Shown here one piece after another: positions 6,378-46,459 of a stretch of DNA of 64,000 nucleotides (position 1 is the stretch's first letter; each line of letters starts with the position of its first letter). The position numbers and the translations under genes are program-made. Origin of the DNA: a virus; IMG/VR virus record IMGVR_UViG_3300030104_003613; one strand, written 5' to 3'. The notes below the pieces were generated by a model. It made no database searches, was not told where the DNA came from, and saw only the letters and a program-made list of their open reading frames with translations.

Positions 6378-6709
6378 GTAGACTCATTTATATGTTTTTT
6401 CATGTTTTCAATTATGTTTGACATATTAGAAAACACATAACCAAGATCCACATCAGGGGGGAATCCCAGTTGTCTGGCAGAGGCAATAATATTATCCCTC
6501 ATCGCTTTTGCTTCAGGATCATCTGACAGGCTCAACCTAGTATAAAGGACTTTTTGCTTAGATAGCAACTCTTCCATTAGTTCAACGTGTTCTAGTTTAT
6601 CAGCATTGTCCATAGAGGAGAATGAAAATACTGTCTCATAGATCTTGTCCTGAAGATCAGAGATGTCTTTCATTTCCTGTTGAACAAAGTCGGACTTAAA
6701 GAAACTCAT
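6374..6709 (-). CDS. conserved cyanophage hypothetical protein (DUF1825-like)
   Basis: MSFFKSDFVQQE...RLSLSDDPEAK; lies between gp59 and gp32. Confidence 0.7.
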   Translation of the reverse strand: MSFFKSDFVQQEMKDISDLQDKIYETVFSFSSMDNADKLEHVELMEELLSKQKVLYTRLSLSDDPEAKAMRDNIIASARQLGFPPDVDLGYVFSNMSNIIENMKKHINEST

Positions 6710-7608: not shown

Positions 7609-8281
7609 ATTCCTGTAATTTGAATTCAACAAACTCTCTAATATATTTGGAGAGAAGGTTGATGTACTTTCGTTTGTCATACTCTTCATAAACTTTTACC
7701 TCACCATCTTCACACGACATGATGATGACAAATTTCTTTACCATTATACCAGTCATCTCGTATAACATGCAAGCATATGCGGCACACTGTACAAAATGAC
7801 TATCAATCCAAGCGCGTGGTTTGGGTTTCTTTGCTGTCTTGAAATCAATGACAGCAAGTTCAGGTTCACCTGACTCACCAGTGTACTCGGCAATACAGTC
7901 AACACTACCAGCAACACCTAGTTCATAACTAAACAGAGATTGCTCTTGTGCGTGAATATTATCAATCTTATTCAAGGTAGGTTTTGCCTGCTTGAATAAC
8001 ATCTCTGATAAGGGTTGAACCTGTGGAATTTTAAGGTTCTTCAAATAATATTCAGTGCAGGTATGCATGTCAGTGCCCCTGCTAGTTGCTTGTTTGGTAA
8101 TTTTGTTCGCTTCATCGTTACCAACTCTTGCTCTCCATTCTCTGAAGACCTCACGTTGATAGTGACTGATGATAGATGTGATAGAAACTAACTTCTTACC
8201 ATTAGGAGTATCATAGTAACGAACACCACCAATTGTCTCTCGGGATAGAGACGGATAATCTACTTCAATTTGTGTAAACAT
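7592..8281 (-). CDS. PD-(D/E)XK exonuclease
   Basis: SITSII, RGTDMH, AGSVDCIAE, IDFKT and QCAAYA motifs. Confidence 0.85.
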   Translation of the reverse strand: MFTQIEVDYPSLSRETIGGVRYYDTPNGKKLVSITSIISHYQREVFREWRARVGNDEANKITKQATSRGTDMHTCTEYYLKNLKIPQVQPLSEMLFKQAKPTLNKIDNIHAQEQSLFSYELGVAGSVDCIAEYTGESGEPELAVIDFKTAKKPKPRAWIDSHFVQCAAYACMLYEMTGIMVKKFVIIMSCEDGEVKVYEEYDKRKYINLLSKYIREFVEFKLQEYGKES

Positions 8282-9042
8282 TACATACCAAGTTCAAGTT
8301 TAGCAATTATGTACTCTTTTACGAGTCCACTTCTACAAATGTCTTCCGCTTCAAACTCTATTAGATCAAATGATGGCATGTTCTTAAGAATGCGAATGAA
8401 GTCTACGATTCCATTCTTCTCAGCGGTCTTTACAAGGTCAGTCTGTGTAGCATCACCACAGAAATGAATCTTGCTGCCCTCACCAACACGGGTAATCATT
8501 GAGTCCAGTTCGTGGAAGTTTAAATTCTGGAACTCATCAACGATAACGATAACATTATCAAGAGTAGTGCCTCTAATGAATGAGGTAGACCAAAAACTAA
8601 TTGTACCTTGTGCTTTGAGGTTAGCATAAAGCATTTCAAACGCATTGTCATCTGGCATCTCGAACATATACTTTACCATATTTTTATATGGAATCTGGTA
8701 AAGCGAGGACTTATCTTCATGATCACCAGGGAGAAAACCAATCTCTCTGGTGGGTACAAGCGATCTGACGATGTAGATCTTCTCGTAAGGTGTCTTGGGG
8801 TCCAAGACATCTAGGATGGCATTGTAGAGGGTAATAAAGGTCTTACCTGTGCCAGCACAACCATAAGCAACAAGGTTCTTATCCTTTTTATACTCTTCAA
8901 AGAACTTCTCTTGATTGTCAGTGAGAGGTTCAATCTTCCTGATGTAATCAAGATTGATTGGTTTCTTTCTCTTCATAGTGCGATTGCTAGTACCAAAGGG
9001 GACTGGGTTCTCTTTCTTCTTCTTAACTGGCATATGTGTCAA
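8281..9042 (-). CDS. phoH: PhoH-family ATPase
   Basis: GCAGTGKT P-loop, IGFLPG, FIRGTT, DEFQN and GDATQTD motifs. Confidence 0.95.
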   Translation of the reverse strand: MTHMPVKKKKENPVPFGTSNRTMKRKKPINLDYIRKIEPLTDNQEKFFEEYKKDKNLVAYGCAGTGKTFITLYNAILDVLDPKTPYEKIYIVRSLVPTREIGFLPGDHEDKSSLYQIPYKNMVKYMFEMPDDNAFEMLYANLKAQGTISFWSTSFIRGTTLDNVIVIVDEFQNLNFHELDSMITRVGEGSKIHFCGDATQTDLVKTAEKNGIVDFIRILKNMPSFDLIEFEAEDICRSGLVKEYIIAKLELGM

Positions 9043-9290
9043 TCGTAGTGCTTCAACGTTGAACCTGGTTGTTTCTGTGCCTTACCGATAACGTCCTTCC
9101 AACCTGGATGTTTGGTATAGATTTTAGAGAAAGGTTCACCCATTTCAATGCCCATTTTAGGAGCATTGTCAGGGGTATAGAATCTTTCCCAATCGGGGTT
9201 GTCATCTCTCCATTGATCCCAGTCATGAATACTCATCACAACTTCTTTGGTTTCACCAGTTTCCTTATGTTTGACAGGGTATGTTGCCAT
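9039..9290 (-). CDS. conserved hypothetical protein
   Basis: ORF coupled to phoH by an ATGA overlap; MATYPV...GWKDV pattern. Confidence 0.7.
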   Translation of the reverse strand: MATYPVKHKETGETKEVVMSIHDWDQWRDDNPDWERFYTPDNAPKMGIEMGEPFSKIYTKHPGWKDVIGKAQKQPGSTLKHYD

Positions 9291-9317
9291 ACTTCACCTC
9301 AAGTGTATGTATATTTA

Positions 9318-9956
9318 TTAAGACCAGTCAAGAGCACCGGCAATAGTAGGAAACTGCTCCGCAAAGATCTTCTTACAACCTTCAGCAATATCCATATGTT
9401 CTTTTTGTGTTCCATGTGCGGAACGCAATTCTATGTAATGGATCCACGAACGAACAGAGCCGCTCATGTATAATTTTGTCCCTACGGCGAGGGGAAGCAC
9501 CATTCTAGCACACTCCTTTGCCACACCAATTTCAAGCATCTGCTGATACAGTGCCATAGAAGAATCAAATAGAGTCTGCATTTGCATCTCTAGTTTCTGT
9601 CTAATAAAGGGATCAAGATCATCAGTGGAGTTCTGACGATTCTTGATGTCTTGACGACGTAGTTCAGGTAGAGAAATCTTATTGCTAAGAAGAGATGAAT
9701 CTGCGTAGCGTTGAGAAAACTCTTGGAATGTAAATGATCTGTGACGAAGCACTTGAGCTGCGATTGCTCTGGAAGTTTCTATCTCCAATGTCATAAATGA
9801 CTGTTCAAAGATACTCCAGTGCTGATGCTTAATACAATACTTAATTAGACCATCAAAGGAATCATTTCCCTGGTTAGAGGGATTACTGACGCGAGCACAG
9901 TAAGCGATATGCTTTTCGGCATCGGGTGATACCGTTACAAGTTCTACATTACTCAT
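9318..9956 (-). CDS. thyX: flavin-dependent thymidylate synthase ThyX
   Basis: RHRSFTFQEFSQRY ThyX motif. Confidence 0.95.
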   Translation of the reverse strand: MSNVELVTVSPDAEKHIAYCARVSNPSNQGNDSFDGLIKYCIKHQHWSIFEQSFMTLEIETSRAIAAQVLRHRSFTFQEFSQRYADSSLLSNKISLPELRRQDIKNRQNSTDDLDPFIRQKLEMQMQTLFDSSMALYQQMLEIGVAKECARMVLPLAVGTKLYMSGSVRSWIHYIELRSAHGTQKEHMDIAEGCKKIFAEQFPTIAGALDWS

Positions 9957-10125
9957 CTTTTTTCATCTGTTTACGGACCTTTTTAAGTTCTTTAAGTTCT
10001 TCTTTGATGCCCTGATAGGCTGCCTCGGCACTTATCTTACCACCCATCTCCATACAAGTATAGACTTCTACCCTTGTACCAAAATGTTGAAGTGCTCTTT
10101 CAAACGTATCTAGTTCTTCGTACAT
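9949..10125 (-). CDS. small hypothetical protein (58 aa)
   Basis: Manual translation MYEELDTFERALQHFGTRVEVYTCMEMGGKISAEAAYQGIKEELKELKKVRKQMKKDE. Confidence 0.7.
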   Translation of the reverse strand: MYEELDTFERALQHFGTRVEVYTCMEMGGKISAEAAYQGIKEELKELKKVRKQMKKDE

Positions 10126-10127
10126 AG

Positions 10128-10301
10128 TTAATCAGGATAACCGTCATCATCATCCCACAATTCAACAAAGTCTGTGAGGGGTGCTTGATATTTAGTTTCG
10201 TTTTTAGTGTACGCTTCTACATCAGAAAATACTTCTGACTCCAAAGCATCAACTAGCAAGCGTAAGTTCCTAACTAGGAGTTTTAGTTTTTCTCTTTCCA
10301 T
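10128..10301 (-). CDS. small hypothetical protein (57 aa)
   Basis: Manual translation MEREKLKLLVRNLRLLVDALESEVFSD...DDDDGYPD; AGGAGG ribosome binding site. Confidence 0.75.
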   Translation of the reverse strand: MEREKLKLLVRNLRLLVDALESEVFSDVEAYTKNETKYQAPLTDFVELWDDDDGYPD

Positions 10302-10322
10302 AGATAACGTTTACCTCCTGTA

Positions 10323-10351
10323 ATTATAGGTAAAAAAAAGGGACTCGTCAA
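10323..10351 (-). promoter_or_regulatory. sigma70-like promoter overlapping a terminator
   Basis: TTGACG-17 nt-TATAAT, with the -35 element at the terminator loop. Confidence 0.75.
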
Positions 10352-10360
10352 GAGTCCCTT
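10332..10360 (-). terminator. intrinsic terminator after DUF4278
   Basis: AAGGGACTC/GAGTCCCTT stem followed by a U-tract. Confidence 0.85.
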
Positions 10361-10380
10361 GATATAGTTTGTAGTCTAGA

Positions 10381-10548
10381 TCACTTTTTGTAAGTCTTAC
10401 CACGATAGCAAAATGTGCCATGGGTTTCCTTACTCTCTACACAACGAGTATCATACTCAACACCACGATAAGCGGTATGAGAGATTTGAGCGTTGTGAAG
10501 TGCAGATGCCTTTTCGATCTGCTTCTTGATTAGATTGAGTGTGTTCAT
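10381..10548 (-). CDS. DUF4278-family small protein (55 aa)
   Basis: MNTLNLIKKQIEKASALHNAQISHTAYRGVEYDTRCVESKETHGTFCYRGKTYKK; two YRG motifs; AGGAG ribosome binding site. Confidence 0.8.
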   Translation of the reverse strand: MNTLNLIKKQIEKASALHNAQISHTAYRGVEYDTRCVESKETHGTFCYRGKTYKK

Positions 10549-10583
10549 GAGTTTACTCCTGAAGTAGTTGGCGTTTTTAGTGC

Positions 10584-10816
10584 CGTTCCTTCAGTCGTTT
10601 GCGTCCCAATACCAATCACATTGTGGTGCTGATTCCTTTACGGTATCAATTAACTCTACCTTGACTTGATTATCAAGGTATTCGCTTGCCTCAATCTTCA
10701 ACATAATAGCATCAGATTGTTGACAGGTCAGTGAGGTATACAGAAGAAATTCTGCCATGGGATGAACGGCTCCGTTCCGCGACTTACTTGCGTCCCACCC
10801 TAGAGCGGGATGAACG
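10584..10816 (-). ncRNA. tandem glutamine riboswitch-like RNA (glnA / Downstream-peptide class)
   Basis: Two CGUUCAUCCC...GGGACGCAA...GGAACG units; E-loop-like AGUA/GAA; AGUCG/CGACU pairing; located 5' of DUF4278. Confidence 0.75.
10591..10758 (-). CDS. 55-aa ORF embedded in the second aptamer
   Basis: MAEFLLYTSLTCQQSDAIMLKIEASEYLDNQVKVELIDTVKESAPQCDWYWDAND; GGAG lies 11 nt upstream of the ATG. Confidence 0.65.
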   Translation of the reverse strand: MAEFLLYTSLTCQQSDAIMLKIEASEYLDNQVKVELIDTVKESAPQCDWYWDAND

Positions 10817-10824
10817 TATGGTCT

Positions 10825-10853
10825 ATTATAGACCTCATATATTATATAGTCAA
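10825..10853 (-). promoter_or_regulatory. sigma70-like promoter of the riboswitch transcript
   Basis: TTGACT-17 nt-TATAAT; predicted start site falls at the aptamer 5' end. Confidence 0.8.
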
Positions 10854-11035
10854 GCCCCTTCCGTATATGAAATAGTGATACGCTTGCTGACCTCACCCCT
10901 GCTGTTTACCACTGTGGTATACTGAACTTCCCCGTTTAGAAGTTTACATATATCATCTGCTAGTCTTCGCGAGATTACTTTGTTAGTCTCCTGCTGCCAT
11001 TTCTTTTCATTCTGTTCTCTGATATCTTCAGTCAT
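10850..11035 (-). CDS. hypothetical protein
   Basis: ORF in a tightly packed - strand run with an ATGA overlap. Confidence 0.6.
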   Translation of the reverse strand: MTEDIREQNEKKWQQETNKVISRRLADDICKLLNGEVQYTTVVNSRGEVSKRITISYTEGA

Positions 11036-11283
11036 TTTCGTCTATCGAAATGAGTTTTGTTTTTGTATTCTTCCCTTTCTTCACTGGTGTATATACCAAT
11101 CTTTTCCCACATTTCCGCCACCATATCTTTTTGAGGAGGCGTTTCTATGTGCGGAGCTTTTCGTGATTCCTCCTGCCACTTGTCAATTTGCTCTTGAGTT
11201 GGAACAGTAATTCTAAGCATAGTGCCGTCTTCCTCCAACTCTTTATTCATATCAATATATGTTTGGGGGGTGATTTTAATCAT
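11032..11283 (-). CDS. hypothetical protein
   Basis: ORF with an ATGA overlap. Confidence 0.65.
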   Translation of the reverse strand: MIKITPQTYIDMNKELEEDGTMLRITVPTQEQIDKWQEESRKAPHIETPPQKDMVAEMWEKIGIYTSEEREEYKNKTHFDRRK

Positions 11284-11450
11284 TTTTTAGATTCTCTTTC
11301 ATCAAGTGCTTCATTGATAATTTGTTTTAACTCAATACGTTCTTCTGGTGTAAAGATTGTACGGTGCTTTACTGGCATAGGAGCATAACTACTTGGTTTC
11401 TTTGATTTACCAGGAATACTCATGCCTTGTGTATCAATTTTGTCCTTCAT
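11280..11450 (-). CDS. hypothetical protein
   Basis: MKDKIDTQGMS...; start reassigned to follow the upstream stop. Confidence 0.65.
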   Translation of the reverse strand: MKDKIDTQGMSIPGKSKKPSSYAPMPVKHRTIFTPEERIELKQIINEALDERESKK

Positions 11451-11451
11451 A

Positions 11452-11766
11452 TCAATCTCTCTGCCTCCAATCGTCAGGTTTGTCAACGTGAAACCAATTA
11501 ACCATATCATCCGTATCCTGGAACCCTGTCTTGTGATTGGATGGATCAGGATCCCCAAGTCCCATCCTATTCATAAAATCATCCATGGACCCCTCCTGGA
11601 TATCTTGACTCGCCTGACGACGTGCCTTCTTTAACATCTCATTTGCTGTGGTATTGGCTTTAGCTAACTTCTGTGCCCATACCATATCATCTAATTTAAC
11701 ATCTTCATTGTTAGCGATACACTTACAGATGAATTCTAACCTGAGTCGATAATGGGTGGAAAGCAT
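11452..11766 (-). CDS. conserved cyanophage hypothetical protein
   Basis: MLSTHYRLRLEFIC...DWRQRD; AGGAG ribosome binding site. Confidence 0.75.
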   Translation of the reverse strand: MLSTHYRLRLEFICKCIANNEDVKLDDMVWAQKLAKANTTANEMLKKARRQASQDIQEGSMDDFMNRMGLGDPDPSNHKTGFQDTDDMVNWFHVDKPDDWRQRD

Positions 11767-11787
11767 ATGTCTCCTTCGATATTTTAT

Positions 11788-11952
11788 TTATTTTTGTTGA
11801 GATAATAACCAACAGGGTTTACACATAGAACCAACCCAAATGTGTAGTTCTTCGTTCCAACAACCAAGTGTAGGACACTTATTGGCCGGGGTCATCTGAC
11901 CACATACGCAACACTCTGTCTCCCACATTTTCCATACTTCATCCTTGTCCAT
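11788..11952 (-). CDS. small Cys-rich (possible zinc-binding) protein, 54 aa
   Basis: Manual translation MDKDEVWKMWETECCVCGQMTPANKCPTLGCWNEELHIWVGSMCKPCWLLSQQK; fills a gap in the gene run. Confidence 0.55.
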   Translation of the reverse strand: MDKDEVWKMWETECCVCGQMTPANKCPTLGCWNEELHIWVGSMCKPCWLLSQQK

Positions 11953-12148
11953 TGGATTTTGCTTCTTTTTTAGTTTTAAAGTAGAGTTTATAATACTTTG
12001 GTTTCATTTCCTCAATGACTTTCATATCATCATAGAAACCCATAAACTTGAGGTGTTGATAGGTTCCTTCCATCTCACTGATAAGCATCAGGATGTTGGT
12101 GGGAGTAACCTCCCTACCCCCAGGTTCGTAATCAGAGAGACTCTTCAC
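11939..12148 (-). CDS. hypothetical protein
   Basis: ORF in the - strand run. Confidence 0.65.
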   Translation of the reverse strand: MKSLSDYEPGGREVTPTNILMLISEMEGTYQHLKFMGFYDDMKVIEEMKPKYYKLYFKTKKEAKSNGQG

Positions 12149-12317
12149 TTCCCTCTTTTATCATCTTAGAGACTACATTCTCTGTTCCGTCCATAGTCTT
12201 GACAGCAAACAAACTAGACTTCTGATACTTCTTGATCTTCTTATACTTTTTAAGAAGAGTTTGAATTTGATCAGGTTCCATGTCTAGACCCTCAAAGTTA
12301 ATATCAAATCCTTTCAT
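12132..12317 (-). CDS. hypothetical protein
   Basis: MKGFDINFEG...; start reassigned. Confidence 0.65.
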   Translation of the reverse strand: MKGFDINFEGLDMEPDQIQTLLKKYKKIKKYQKSSLFAVKTMDGTENVVSKMIKEGSEESL

Positions 12318-12589
12318 TTCTTTTCCTTCTCCTTTTCCTTCTTTGCTCCTGGTGGATTCCAAAGTTTAGAACTGATGCGTCCTTCTGCCTGTGTGATGTT
12401 AATCAAATCTTTCTTGTACTTATCATAGTACATATCAAAGATGTCAACTTTCCTACCAGACAATACGATATCAAATTTACTCAAGTCTTCTACTTTGTAC
12501 TCAACCATGTAAGCACTAACAGGGAGTGACTTATCAAGCGATGCTGACGGGTCACAATCTTCCGAGATTACTTTTACAGTATTTGCCAT
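12314..12589 (-). CDS. conserved hypothetical protein
   Basis: MANTVKVISEDCDP...; start overlaps the upstream stop (TAATG). Confidence 0.7.
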   Translation of the reverse strand: MANTVKVISEDCDPSASLDKSLPVSAYMVEYKVEDLSKFDIVLSGRKVDIFDMYYDKYKKDLINITQAEGRISSKLWNPPGAKKEKEKEKK

Positions 12590-13041
12590 TAAGAGCGTCC
12601 TCCCCATTCAATATCTTCATACGCAGATTCTACCACAGGTTTGGTGAGTTTGAACTTCTTACCCAGTTCCTTATCCTTCACAAGGCAAAGGATGTCTGCT
12701 TCATCAGGATGAAGACCCTCTAGCATTTGAATAAACATGCTTTCTCTACGAGTCTTTGAAAGAGAATCATTACCACCTTTCACAAAGTGATAGAGATTCC
12801 TCCACTCCTTACGCAGAGAGGTATGGTCGGTGCCAAGAGGTGCTTCACTCTTGTTATATGGAACCACACCATCTGGAAGCAAAGAGATAACAGTGTCATC
12901 AAAGTTCCAGATGAGAATTGCGGTGAGAGCATCATTACGATGCTCTTTTAATAGTTCAACCTTCTTATCTCTGCTTCTTGCCTTGCTGACTTCAGCAAGG
13001 ATTTCATGCATAAAAGGATTAGGTGGAAGTTTTGTAGACAT
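12589..13041 (-). CDS. conserved T4-like phage hypothetical protein
   Basis: LPDGVVPY...RRESMFIQMLEGLHPDEA motif. Confidence 0.75.
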   Translation of the reverse strand: MSTKLPPNPFMHEILAEVSKARSRDKKVELLKEHRNDALTAILIWNFDDTVISLLPDGVVPYNKSEAPLGTDHTSLRKEWRNLYHFVKGGNDSLSKTRRESMFIQMLEGLHPDEADILCLVKDKELGKKFKLTKPVVESAYEDIEWGGRS

Positions 13042-13064
13042 GATTTCAATTCAGGTTTGGTTAT

Positions 13065-13286
13065 TTATTCTTCAGATTGGAAGTCGTCAAGTGTATTTTC
13101 AAATCTCACTGCCAGAATATCATCTGGGATAATCTGACCATTCTCATCAAACATTTCCGGGTGTGTTGGAATGTATGTTGAGTTTCTTTCAATTACATAT
13201 TCTTTTAGTAGGTATCCGACGACTCCACCTACTATCAAGAACATAAACGAAATAACTGTAGACAGTGTAAGGGTAACTGCTAACAT
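13065..13286 (-). CDS. small membrane protein
   Basis: N-terminal hydrophobic helix; HPEMFDENG motif; AGGAG ribosome binding site. Confidence 0.7.
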   Translation of the reverse strand: MLAVTLTLSTVISFMFLIVGGVVGYLLKEYVIERNSTYIPTHPEMFDENGQIIPDDILAVRFENTLDDFQSEE

Positions 13287-13299
13287 GATTCTCCTCCCA

Positions 13300-13542
13300 T
13301 CAGTGAGACTCTTTCTTTTTAAAATCTAAACTGAAGTCTAGATTGATGTTGATCTCTCTACGGAAGAGGGAGAACATCTTACCAAACTTCATTTGAAAAG
13401 TTTTAGGTGGTTCTGTCCTCCTTTTATTTCTGAGTAACAACTCAACCCCTCTGTTAATTTGAGAGGGTGAATCATCAGTGATTTTATTTAGAGGACTTCC
13501 TCCTCCTTCCAGGTTTCTTTTCTTGTTCATAACGCCAAGCAT
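13300..13542 (-). CDS. hypothetical protein (start uncertain)
   Basis: INRGVELLLR-containing ORF in the gene run. Confidence 0.55.
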   Translation of the reverse strand: MLGVMNKKRNLEGGGSPLNKITDDSPSQINRGVELLLRNKRRTEPPKTFQMKFGKMFSLFRREININLDFSLDFKKKESH

Positions 13543-13843
13543 CTTGAAGGATGCTTTCTAGGTAGTTTTTGATCTTTCGTGCTTCTGGTTTTCCCAGATA
13601 ACCATAGGCTTCTCTTAACTGTTTGTGTTGATCATCGGAACCACCTTCAAGGTAATCCTCTAGATCATAGATTGTAAGTGTAATATTCTGAGCGGTAGGA
13701 CCTTCTAGAAACTCCTGAACATCCCGTCTCGTCATGTTTTCATTTTTAAGATAAGCATACATGTCGAGCATAAATTTATGATTATCTGCGAATGCATAAT
13801 CAATTGCGTGTTCCACGATATCTACGAAGTTTATGTTGTCCAT
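13484..13843 (-). CDS. conserved hypothetical protein
   Basis: LREAYGYLGKPEARKIKNYL motif. Confidence 0.75.
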   Translation of the reverse strand: MDNINFVDIVEHAIDYAFADNHKFMLDMYAYLKNENMTRRDVQEFLEGPTAQNITLTIYDLEDYLEGGSDDQHKQLREAYGYLGKPEARKIKNYLESILQDAWRYEQEKKPGRRRKSSK

Positions 13844-14089
13844 TTACACTAGATTATTTTCTTTGAGATAGATGACAGTTTCCTTACATCCTCCTAAAGA
13901 TTTATCATTACAGAGAACTTGAGGGAAAGTTGTACCCTTTCCAAACTCATCATAGAATTCCCCTCTTGTAAAGTCTTTACCAAGTTTATACTCCACGAAT
14001 GACAGTTCTGCCAATTGTAGCGCACCGATTACCTTTGTACAATAGGGGCAACCAGTTTTAGAATAAACGGTGAAGATATTCTTTCTCAT
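13844..14089 (-). CDS. nrdC: glutaredoxin
   Basis: CPYC active site, TFPQV and GG motifs. Confidence 0.9.
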   Translation of the reverse strand: MRKNIFTVYSKTGCPYCTKVIGALQLAELSFVEYKLGKDFTRGEFYDEFGKGTTFPQVLCNDKSLGGCKETVIYLKENNLV

Positions 14090-17896: not shown

Positions 17897-18005
17897 TTTT
17901 GAAAAGGGTTATGTACGAGTACGGGGTAGTACTAGGTAAAATATTCCAACTCTACCCTCCAGAGTTGGTATGAAGGACTATTGTTTAGACACGCTGTTTA
18001 GTCCT
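17897..18005 (-). ncRNA. structured psbA 5' UTR, PhotoRC-II-like motif
   Basis: CCAACUCU/AGAGUUGG hairpin whose GAGGGU loop can pair with ACCCU near the start codon; AGUAC/GUACU hairpin; position matches that known for the cyanophage PhotoRC-II motif. Confidence 0.65.
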
Positions 18006-18049
18006 GGTGAGGCGTGTGGGATGGTGAGGAAATCCTCACCCCGTCCATG

Positions 18050-46186: not shown

Positions 46187-46258
46187 TGCTTGAAGAGGGG
46201 ATCGAACCCCCGACAACCTCGGTGTAAACGAGACGCTCTACCTCTGAGCTATTCAAGC
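46187..46258 (-). tRNA. tRNA-Val(TAC)
   Basis: Cloverleaf GCTTGAA...CTCG-TTTACAC-CGAG...TTCGAT...TTCAAGCA. Confidence 0.95.
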
Positions 46259-46387: not shown

Positions 46388-46459
46388 CAGGTCCACTAGG
46401 AATCGAACCTAGAATAACTGCTTAGAAGGCAGTAGTTATATCCGTTTAACTATGGACCC
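46388..46459 (-). tRNA. tRNA-Arg(TCT)
   Basis: Cloverleaf GGGTCCA...ACTGC-CTTCTAA-GCAGT...TTCGAT...TGGACCTG. Confidence 0.95.

Follow-up and report, generated by a model that had tools for sequence, protein, structure and literature searches.

Organization of the leader and its genes

We analysed a leader RNA and its associated genes on the minus strand of the IMG/VR virus record IMGVR_UViG_3300030104_003613, a stretch of 64,000 nucleotides (nt) of ocean cyanophage DNA that is referred to below as the window. Based on its sequence, the locus appears to be a mini-operon consisting of an early promoter, a glutamine-sensing leader and two small genes. The first gene, open reading frame 1 (ORF1), lies inside a stem of the leader and the second, ORF2, follows the leader. 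A preliminary description of this DNA had listed most of the elements discussed here, and every one of them was found by direct reading of the minus strand where it had been placed. The strands are named after the interpretation developed below, in which one aptamer core is enclosed by another, and all coordinates in this section are on the minus strand.

Transcription is expected to start from a sigma-70-type promoter, TTGACT-17-TATAAT (10825-10853; 11 of 12 matches), with its -35 box at 10853-10848, overlapping the stop codon of an upstream ORF of 61 amino acids (aa), and its -10 box at 10830-10825. Since the promoter ends 8 nt before the first CGUUC, the transcript should begin at the aptamer itself, which places this CGUUC at, or 1-3 nt from, the predicted 5' end of the RNA; a similar promoter ending 7-9 nt before the first CGUUC is present in 95 of 131 loci. 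The first CGUUC (10812-10816) is taken as the 5' strand of the outer helix P1. It is followed by the P2a hairpin of the outer core (UCCCGCU/GGUGGGA, 10793-10810), by ACGCAAGUA (10785-10793), which comprises a junction strand and the AGUA half of an E-loop, and by AGUCG (10780-10784), the 5' strand of P3, whose partner is at 10593-10597. Reading on along the sequence, C-G separates AGUCG from the first GAACG (10773-10777), the 5' strand of a predicted inner helix, P1', which is overlapped by the GGAG ribosome site of ORF1 (10770-10773). The second CGUUC (10764-10768), across a GAGC loop, provides the 3' strand of this hairpin.

The two strands of the next helix, P2b, are UCCCA (10758-10762) and UGGGA (10604-10608), 150 nt away, and the loop between them is filled by ORF1 (55 codons and a stop, 10591-10758). 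The last A of UCCCA is the A of the ORF1 AUG (10758-10756). The inner junction strand ACGCAAA (10598-10604), also read directly from the sequence, leads from UGGGA to CGACU (10593-10597), the 3' strand of P3, the last U of which opens the ORF1 stop UGA (10593-10591). In other words, P1' holds the ORF1 ribosome site and P2b its AUG, the last five codons fall within the junction strand, and the stop is part of P3. The GAA half of the E-loop, a G and the second GAACG come next (10584-10592), and Rfam alignments of relatives lacking ORF1 assign this GAACG (10588-10584) to the 3' strand of the outer P1. CUGAAG (10589-10594) overlaps P3, the E-loop and the ORF1 stop, being composed of the last two P3 bases, the GAA and the following G. 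It is the 5' strand of a switch (anti-Shine-Dalgarno) helix, whose 3' strand, CUUCAG (10559-10564), runs into the GGAG ribosome site of ORF2 at 10556-10559. ORF2 itself (55 aa) occupies 10381-10548, and a putative intrinsic terminator (10338-10360), a 9-bp stem followed by a U run, closes the mini-operon.

As judged from its motifs and its relatives, ORF2 is a DUF4278-like (IF17-like) protein. It has two YRG motifs and a full-length profile match to phrog_545 (E 1.8e-36), a family without known function; a PDB sequence search gave no useful match. Proteins at the same position in related loci score 26-31.5 bits against DUF4278, and all of them carry the two YRG motifs. The start of ORF2, AUGAAC (10543-10548), is complementary to the GUUCAU of both CGUUCAU boxes of the leader, and an unconstrained minimum free energy (MFE) fold pairs it with the first of them; this feature is found only in the MNT-type subfamily of ORF2.

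Conservation of the helices and of the nested gene

Conservation was examined in about 130 loci, comprising 12 GenBank cyanomyophages and at least 120 IMG/VR loci, the latter collected by a pattern scan that left the AGUCG positions unconstrained. By sequence, the region matches 431 GenBank cyanophage records; for positions 8000-14000 of the window, there is no close relative among GenBank phages, the best identity being 74-78%. Across the 12 GenBank genomes and some 120 IMG/VR loci, the RNA blocks do not vary, in contrast to the intervening coding sequence, which is divergent. In particular, the ligand-proximal blocks CGUUCA, GGGACGCA and GGAACG are all unchanged throughout the set, and the coding sequence between them falls to as little as 53% identity. 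The exact motif is all but missing from prokaryotes: a scan of contigs from 185,579 prokaryote genomes gave 116 matches, as chance predicts for 16 fixed bases. Only five of these are true ones, all five resemble phage contigs binned into metagenome-assembled genomes (MAGs), and none is in a cyanobacterial chromosome.

To count pairing, we used 81 distinct loci having the layout of the window, with 500 shuffles and slid alignments as controls. Of the cells in the proposed helices, 99.1% are paired, as compared with 28-49% in the slid controls. Compensatory changes affect five pairs, of which two belong to P3 and three to P2b, a result that none of the 500 shuffles equalled. In P3, 100% of cells are paired, two pairs being compensatory and two having G.U changes. 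AAUCG occurs together with CGAUU (2 loci) and AGUCA with UGACU (4 loci), the other variants being G.U pairs. Around ORF1, three of the five P2b pairs are compensatory, and variants include UCCU/AGGA, UCUAUG/CAUAGA, UCCUCA/UGAGGA and UCCUUG/CAAAGGA. The preliminary description had proposed both that AGUCG pairs with CGACU beside an AGUA/GAA E-loop and that UCCCA pairs with UGGGA over a long range, and both proposals are borne out by this covariation. The same is true of the switch helix, which it had placed next to the ORF2 ribosome site: the variable position of CUGAAG/CUUCAG is GC in 40 loci, AU in 25 and GU in 16, with zero mismatches and no A-C combination. Across 103 loci, P2a is represented by 31 different 5-bp stems, which use several types of pair at positions 2-5 and keep their pairing; in Syn1, P2a is longer and the first CGUUC is present. 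The four P1 strands, the two copies of CGUUC and of GAACG, are invariant in all 81 loci and hence yield no P1 covariation. The long-range helices, namely P2b, P3 and the switch helix, are real and are kept by compensatory mutation in the set of about 130 loci.

Folding calculations can be set beside these counts. When no constraint is set, the MFE structure computed for the window leader contains P1', P2b with its long-range pairing and the switch helix, and the domain as a whole folds better than its shuffles (z = -2.78). The probability of closure of the stem around ORF1 is 0.96 with the native ORF1 interior and 0.84 with shuffled interiors, the native value being the higher one in 34 of 35 loci.

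The insert within P2b also behaves as a protein-coding sequence. Among the 110 loci with the long insert, the ORF1 frame is intact in 106, from an AUG four bases past CGUUCA to the U[G/A]A within CGACU[G/A]A, and in the other 4 it stops a few codons early. Together with the coordinates given above, this supports the earlier claim of a complete 55-codon ORF in an aptamer stem loop, with its start and stop inside aptamer elements. The ratio of nonsynonymous to synonymous substitution rates (dN/dS), proposed earlier as a check, is about 0.25 in the central codons, indicating purifying selection. The entropies at codon positions 1, 2 and 3 are 1.01, 0.53 and 1.38, and insert indels are multiples of three. 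Both ORF1 and ORF2 are annotated as coding sequences (hypothetical proteins) in the 12 GenBank cyanomyophages. A GGAG follows the first GGAACGG in 113 of the 118 loci that carry ORF1 and in none of the 12 that lack it. The ORF1 product has a full-length profile match to phrog_504 (E 1e-24), a family without known function, and its 63 homologue clusters are all unnamed. Its AlphaFold model is a three-helix bundle (predicted local distance difference test score 79.6), and two of its Cys residues are invariant. Sequence searches gave no match in Pfam or the PDB, Foldseek found no significant match to the model in the PDB, and the ESM Atlas returned 'hypothetical protein' clusters only. On these comparative grounds, the nested ORF1 is a real gene under purifying selection.

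Its 3' end follows a different rule, being constrained by the RNA structure and not by the protein. In the last five codons (W-D-A-N/H-D), third-position entropy is 0-0.09 bit, as opposed to 0.9-1.8 in codons 2-12. The UGGGA and ACGCAAA strands also encode the W-D-A-N of the ORF1 C-terminus, and the same RNA blocks are present in loci without ORF1.

The window belongs to a modular family. Of 127 classified loci, 86 have an ORF in P2b only, as in the window, 29 have ORFs in both P2 loops, 9 have neither and 3 have one in P2a only; in the ORF-less form (about ten loci), a plain hairpin replaces ORF1. The isolates S-RIM44, S-SM2 and Syn1 share the layout of the window. The gene in the P2a loop, ORF0, encodes 65-68 aa with a hydrophobic N-terminus and two Cys, as exemplified by S-SCSM2R (452-665 of locus L006), and 28 other loci likewise have both ORFs. 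The start and stop codons of ORF0 are part of the stem that closes around it, and each covaries with the sequence flanking the other (UCUCAUG/CAUGAGA, UCCUAUG/CAUAGGA and UCUUAUG/CAUAAGA). ORF0 and ORF1 may be distant paralogues, the hhalign match being weak (59% probability, E 9e-5) with both Cys aligned. In another locus, L079, a further Rfam Glutamine match (35.1 bits) lies upstream of ORF0 at 6502-6553 of the plus strand and may represent a third aptamer. The inner junction strand reads ACGAAAA instead of ACGCAAA in L227, a MAG contig, and the same change occurs in L096; the inner site may either tolerate the change or be decaying in these two loci.

Topology of the aptamer

Rfam reported no glutamine riboswitch at the window locus at its curated gathering thresholds, which are 35 bits for Glutamine (RF01739) and 33 bits for Glutamine-II (RF01704). 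A permissive scan of window positions 10300-10950 matched Glutamine-II with 24.8 bits (E 6e-4) and Glutamine with 24.0 bits, in both cases only within unit 1, the segment from the first CGUUC to the first GAACG. The 12 GenBank cyanomyophages give the same sub-threshold matches, with Glutamine-II at 20-30 bits. The ORF-less relatives, in turn, score 38.4-43.6 bits with RF01739, above its threshold, as a single aptamer extending across both units. In these alignments P1 is formed by the first CGUUC and the last GAACG, and P3 (AGU../..ACU) closes a 38-46-nt insert that holds the second unit. In two ORF-less loci, unit 1 also passes the Glutamine-II threshold, with 34-35.7 bits. Upon deletion of ORF1, the window is 76-84% identical in global alignment to the ORF-less relatives that pass Rfam. 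A custom covariance model built from 8 ORF-less loci matched the window as two halves (26.5 and 35.5 bits), the 150-nt insert being left unspanned.

Other features of RF01739 are present as well: P2 immediately after CGUUCA, an E-loop flanking P3 and a position in the leader of a DUF4278-type gene. ACGCAAGUA differs from the RF01739 consensus ACGGAAGUA by one substitution (C for G), and [G/A]AAG flanks CGACU. According to published structures, the ligand site is made up of the CGUUC/GAACG helix groove and the strand after P2 (PMC6698751), and the leader holds two such sets. Taken together, the Rfam scores of the relatives and the gene context support the earlier proposal that a glutamine-riboswitch-type leader precedes a cyanophage DUF4278 gene.

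We consider it likely, with a probability of roughly 0.65, that the leader is a glutamine riboswitch of type I (glnA-type) in which the core is doubled and a stem encloses ORF1. Its outer three-way junction would consist of P1, the P2a hairpin, ACGCAAGUA, the AGUA/GAA E-loop and P3 (AGUCG/CGACU). The loop of P3 would contain an inner, circularly permuted junction made of P1' (GAACG-GAGC-CGUUC), P2b (UCCCA/UGGGA) and ACGCAAA, which leads back into P3. An aptamer within an aptamer appears to be a better reading than two aptamers side by side, and the nested fold is favoured because of the connectivity of the E-loop, the higher Rfam scores, the constant linker of 3-4 nt between the first GAACG and the second CGUUC, and the MFE structure. 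Consequently, 'tandem' interlocking aptamers, as the preliminary description worded it, do not describe the arrangement well, since the ORF-less relatives score as one aptamer with P3 enclosing the second core. The GAACG/CGUUC hairpin, at whose loop it had placed the GGAG of ORF1, is better read as P1' of the inner, circularly permuted core.

Several observations weigh against this interpretation. The window falls short of both Rfam thresholds (24.0 versus 35 and 24.8 versus 33 bits), and its junction has the ACGCA of type II in place of ACGGA. The invariance of the P1 strands leaves nested and swapped pairing undistinguished by covariation. Relative to the MFE, the nested ON fold costs 8.8 kcal/mol more in a nearest-neighbour model, which takes no account of tertiary contacts or the ligand. 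The loci used for covariation come from related phages, so the counts are not phylogenetically independent, although each long-range helix shows several different compensatory solutions across these loci. ORF2 scores 22.5 bits against Pfam DUF4278 (PF14105), below the cut-off of 25.3. Finally, a ribosome terminating at the ORF1 stop would itself melt the switch helix, and ORF2 could thus be switched on by translational coupling instead of glutamine.

Of the alternatives, one concerns the topology itself. Two aptamers might lie side by side, each closing its own P1, with AGUCG/CGACU as an inter-aptamer helix in a double pseudoknot of type-II-like units; the first GAACG sits in the P3 loop, and a type-II pseudoknot with the 5' CGUUC is topologically possible. 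In favour of this arrangement are the Glutamine-II matches that unit 1 alone produces in every locus scanned (12 loci), the two ORF-less loci that pass the threshold of that family, the type-II form of the CGCA junction and the fact that the first 52-70 nt would fold co-transcriptionally into within-unit pairing first. Without P3 its computed energy is also lower (-76.2 kcal/mol, against -73.2 for the nested fold). However, the AGUA/GAA E-loop connects the first junction strand directly with the last GAACG, which is the arrangement of a canonical type-I three-way junction, the type-I scores of the nested form (38-44 bits) exceed the type-II scores, the linker is always of hairpin-loop size, and the GAACG/CGUUC hairpin appears in the unconstrained MFE structure. 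We therefore regard the side-by-side arrangement as distinctly unlikely.

The remaining alternatives concern what the leader and its insert do. The riboswitch may control the DUF4278 gene alone, with P2 loops that are the sole sites of a compact leader to tolerate insertions and small genes that borrow the promoter, their translation being unconnected with the regulation by glutamine. We give this possibility some weight while holding it to be rather unlikely. All glutamine riboswitches have P2 loops of variable length, the phage loci include ORF-less, one-ORF and two-ORF forms, and the ORF interior favours stem closure only modestly. Against it, the start and stop codons of both ORF0 and ORF1 lie inside the closing stems and covary with the opposite strand, the ribosome site of ORF1 is built into P1' and its stop into P3 and the switch helix. 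Moreover, a translating ribosome must open these helices, so that physical coupling is unavoidable even if unselected. A degenerate relic, or a protein- or small-RNA-binding element that no longer binds glutamine and is conserved for other reasons, would explain why the window scores below the Rfam thresholds, but it is improbable given the invariant ligand-proximal blocks, the ORF-less relatives that pass the curated threshold and the canonical association with DUF4278. It is hardly credible that the 150-nt insert merely extends P2 as a structured, non-coding element without a gene. The better-than-shuffled folding of the domain would fit such an extension, but the low dN/dS, entropy with its minimum at codon position 2 and its maximum at position 3, indels in threes, a frame kept in nearly all loci, the annotation of GenBank relatives and a GGAG that tracks the presence of the ORF all argue for a gene.

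Proposed regulation and relation to known systems

Glutamine riboswitches, whether type I or type II, act as ON switches for genes of the DUF4278/IF17 type (PMC6212724); in the published model, the helix stabilised by the ligand competes with a structure in which the ribosome site is hidden (PMC6698751). The ON-switch logic for ORF2 is inferred because the known glutamine riboswitches behave in this way. Without glutamine, CUGAAG would pair with CUUCAG and mask the ribosome site of the DUF4278 gene. Glutamine binding would lock P1, the E-loop and P3, free CUUCAG-GGAG and so turn on the IF17-like protein, which probably acts on the host glutamine synthetase. Because P1' contains the GGAG of ORF1 and P2b its AUG, initiation on ORF1 should be opposed by the folded state. 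With less certainty, burial of the ORF1 start region in that state would make ORF1 and ORF2 respond oppositely, and ribosomes on ORF1 would transiently unfold the sensor. Since helices surround the ORF1 start and stop, no ribosome can translate ORF1 without opening P2b, P3 and the switch helix; on this layout, sensor folding and ORF1 translation must compete on one RNA. One may speculate further that the leader is a translation-gated, two-site glutamine sensor with reciprocal control, and possibly an evolutionary link between the two classes of glutamine riboswitches, a proposal that is tentative and on balance doubtful. The glutamine-bound fold would then lock the starts of the genes embedded in P2 and open the IF17-like gene, and at low glutamine ribosomes on the embedded genes would hold the sensor unfolded. 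The link between type I and type II is suggested because the same strands allow a nested or a pseudoknotted fold.

As for the surroundings of the mini-operon, the terminator hairpin region (10323-10360, minus strand) contains the -35 box of the next promoter, TTGACG-17-TATAAT, which precedes a 57-aa ORF at 10128-10301. Further downstream on the minus strand are a DUF7219 protein (9949-10125, 76.8 bits) and a ThyX-like thymidylate synthase (9318-9956). Elsewhere in the window, the minus strand carries a PhotoRC-II RNA (17933-18029; 56 bits versus a threshold of 39), typical of T4-like cyanophages, and two tRNA genes (46187-46258 and 46388-46459; 66.1 and 64.0 bits).

Tandem glnA RNAs have been noted before (PMC2864571), and a riboswitch census lists two glutamine aptamers in cyanophages (PMC5473149). 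Cyanophage genome papers report single glnA matches without further analysis, and a paper on methylophages called phage riboswitches rare. A full-text literature search combining glutamine riboswitch, phage and embedded ORF returned no description of such a layout and, within the literature searched, it is an undescribed form of a known riboswitch class. Aptamers are usually viewed as compact non-coding domains that phages seldom use. Here, a predicted sensor is conserved in hundreds of cyanomyophage genomes, and it escapes covariance-model scans because its stems enclose protein-coding genes. For riboswitch searches, the practical lesson is that variable loops should be allowed to hold insertions as large as a gene. 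If the coupling proves functional, the leader would be a natural case in which ligand sensing and translation compete for a shared set of helices, and one RNA would give opposite outputs for two or three small proteins. Abundant ocean viruses would then read the host glutamine pool to time an IF17-like protein, a point relevant to the way in which nitrogen flow in marine Synechococcus is redirected by infection.

The closest known system is Glutamine-I (RF01739), for example the leader of Synechocystis gifB (IF17) (PMC6212724). It shares with the phage RNA the CGUUC and GAACG strands, predicted to close a three-way junction as P1 in the phage RNA, a P2 immediately after CGUUCA, the AGUA/GAA E-loop at the base of P3, a place in the leader of a DUF4278/IF17-type gene and a sequence after P1 that is able to mask the ribosome site (ON switch). 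The phage P3, however, has no terminal loop and opens into a second, permuted junction (CGUUC, P2, ACGCA), and one P2, or two in some relatives, encloses a whole translated gene. The element is also phage-encoded, has ACGCA instead of ACGGA and, in the window, stays below the Rfam threshold. With Glutamine-II (Downstream-peptide, RF01704) of marine picocyanobacteria (PMC6698751), the common features are the CGUUCA-hairpin-CGCA order, GGAACG in the loop of the second helix and an association with the short DUF4278 peptides found in the hosts of these phages, Synechococcus and Prochlorococcus. Unlike Glutamine-II, the phage RNA has an E-loop and a closing 3' GAACG, a shared P3 replaces the second helix, and matches to the family are sub-threshold or marginal (24.8 bits in the window).

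Tandem riboswitches, such as the tandem glycine riboswitch, likewise combine two ligand-sensing cores in one leader with one expression platform. The phage cores, however, are at two ends of one helix, one inside the other, and not in series, and coding sequence parts the strands of a phage core. Translation of a short leader ORF is known to alter which helices form in the case of mgtL in the Mg2+ leader of Salmonella mgtA. Such leader ORFs encode regulatory peptides and belong to the expression platform, whereas ORF1 encodes a conserved 55-aa protein, predicted to be folded and under purifying selection, inside the stem-loop of an aptamer.

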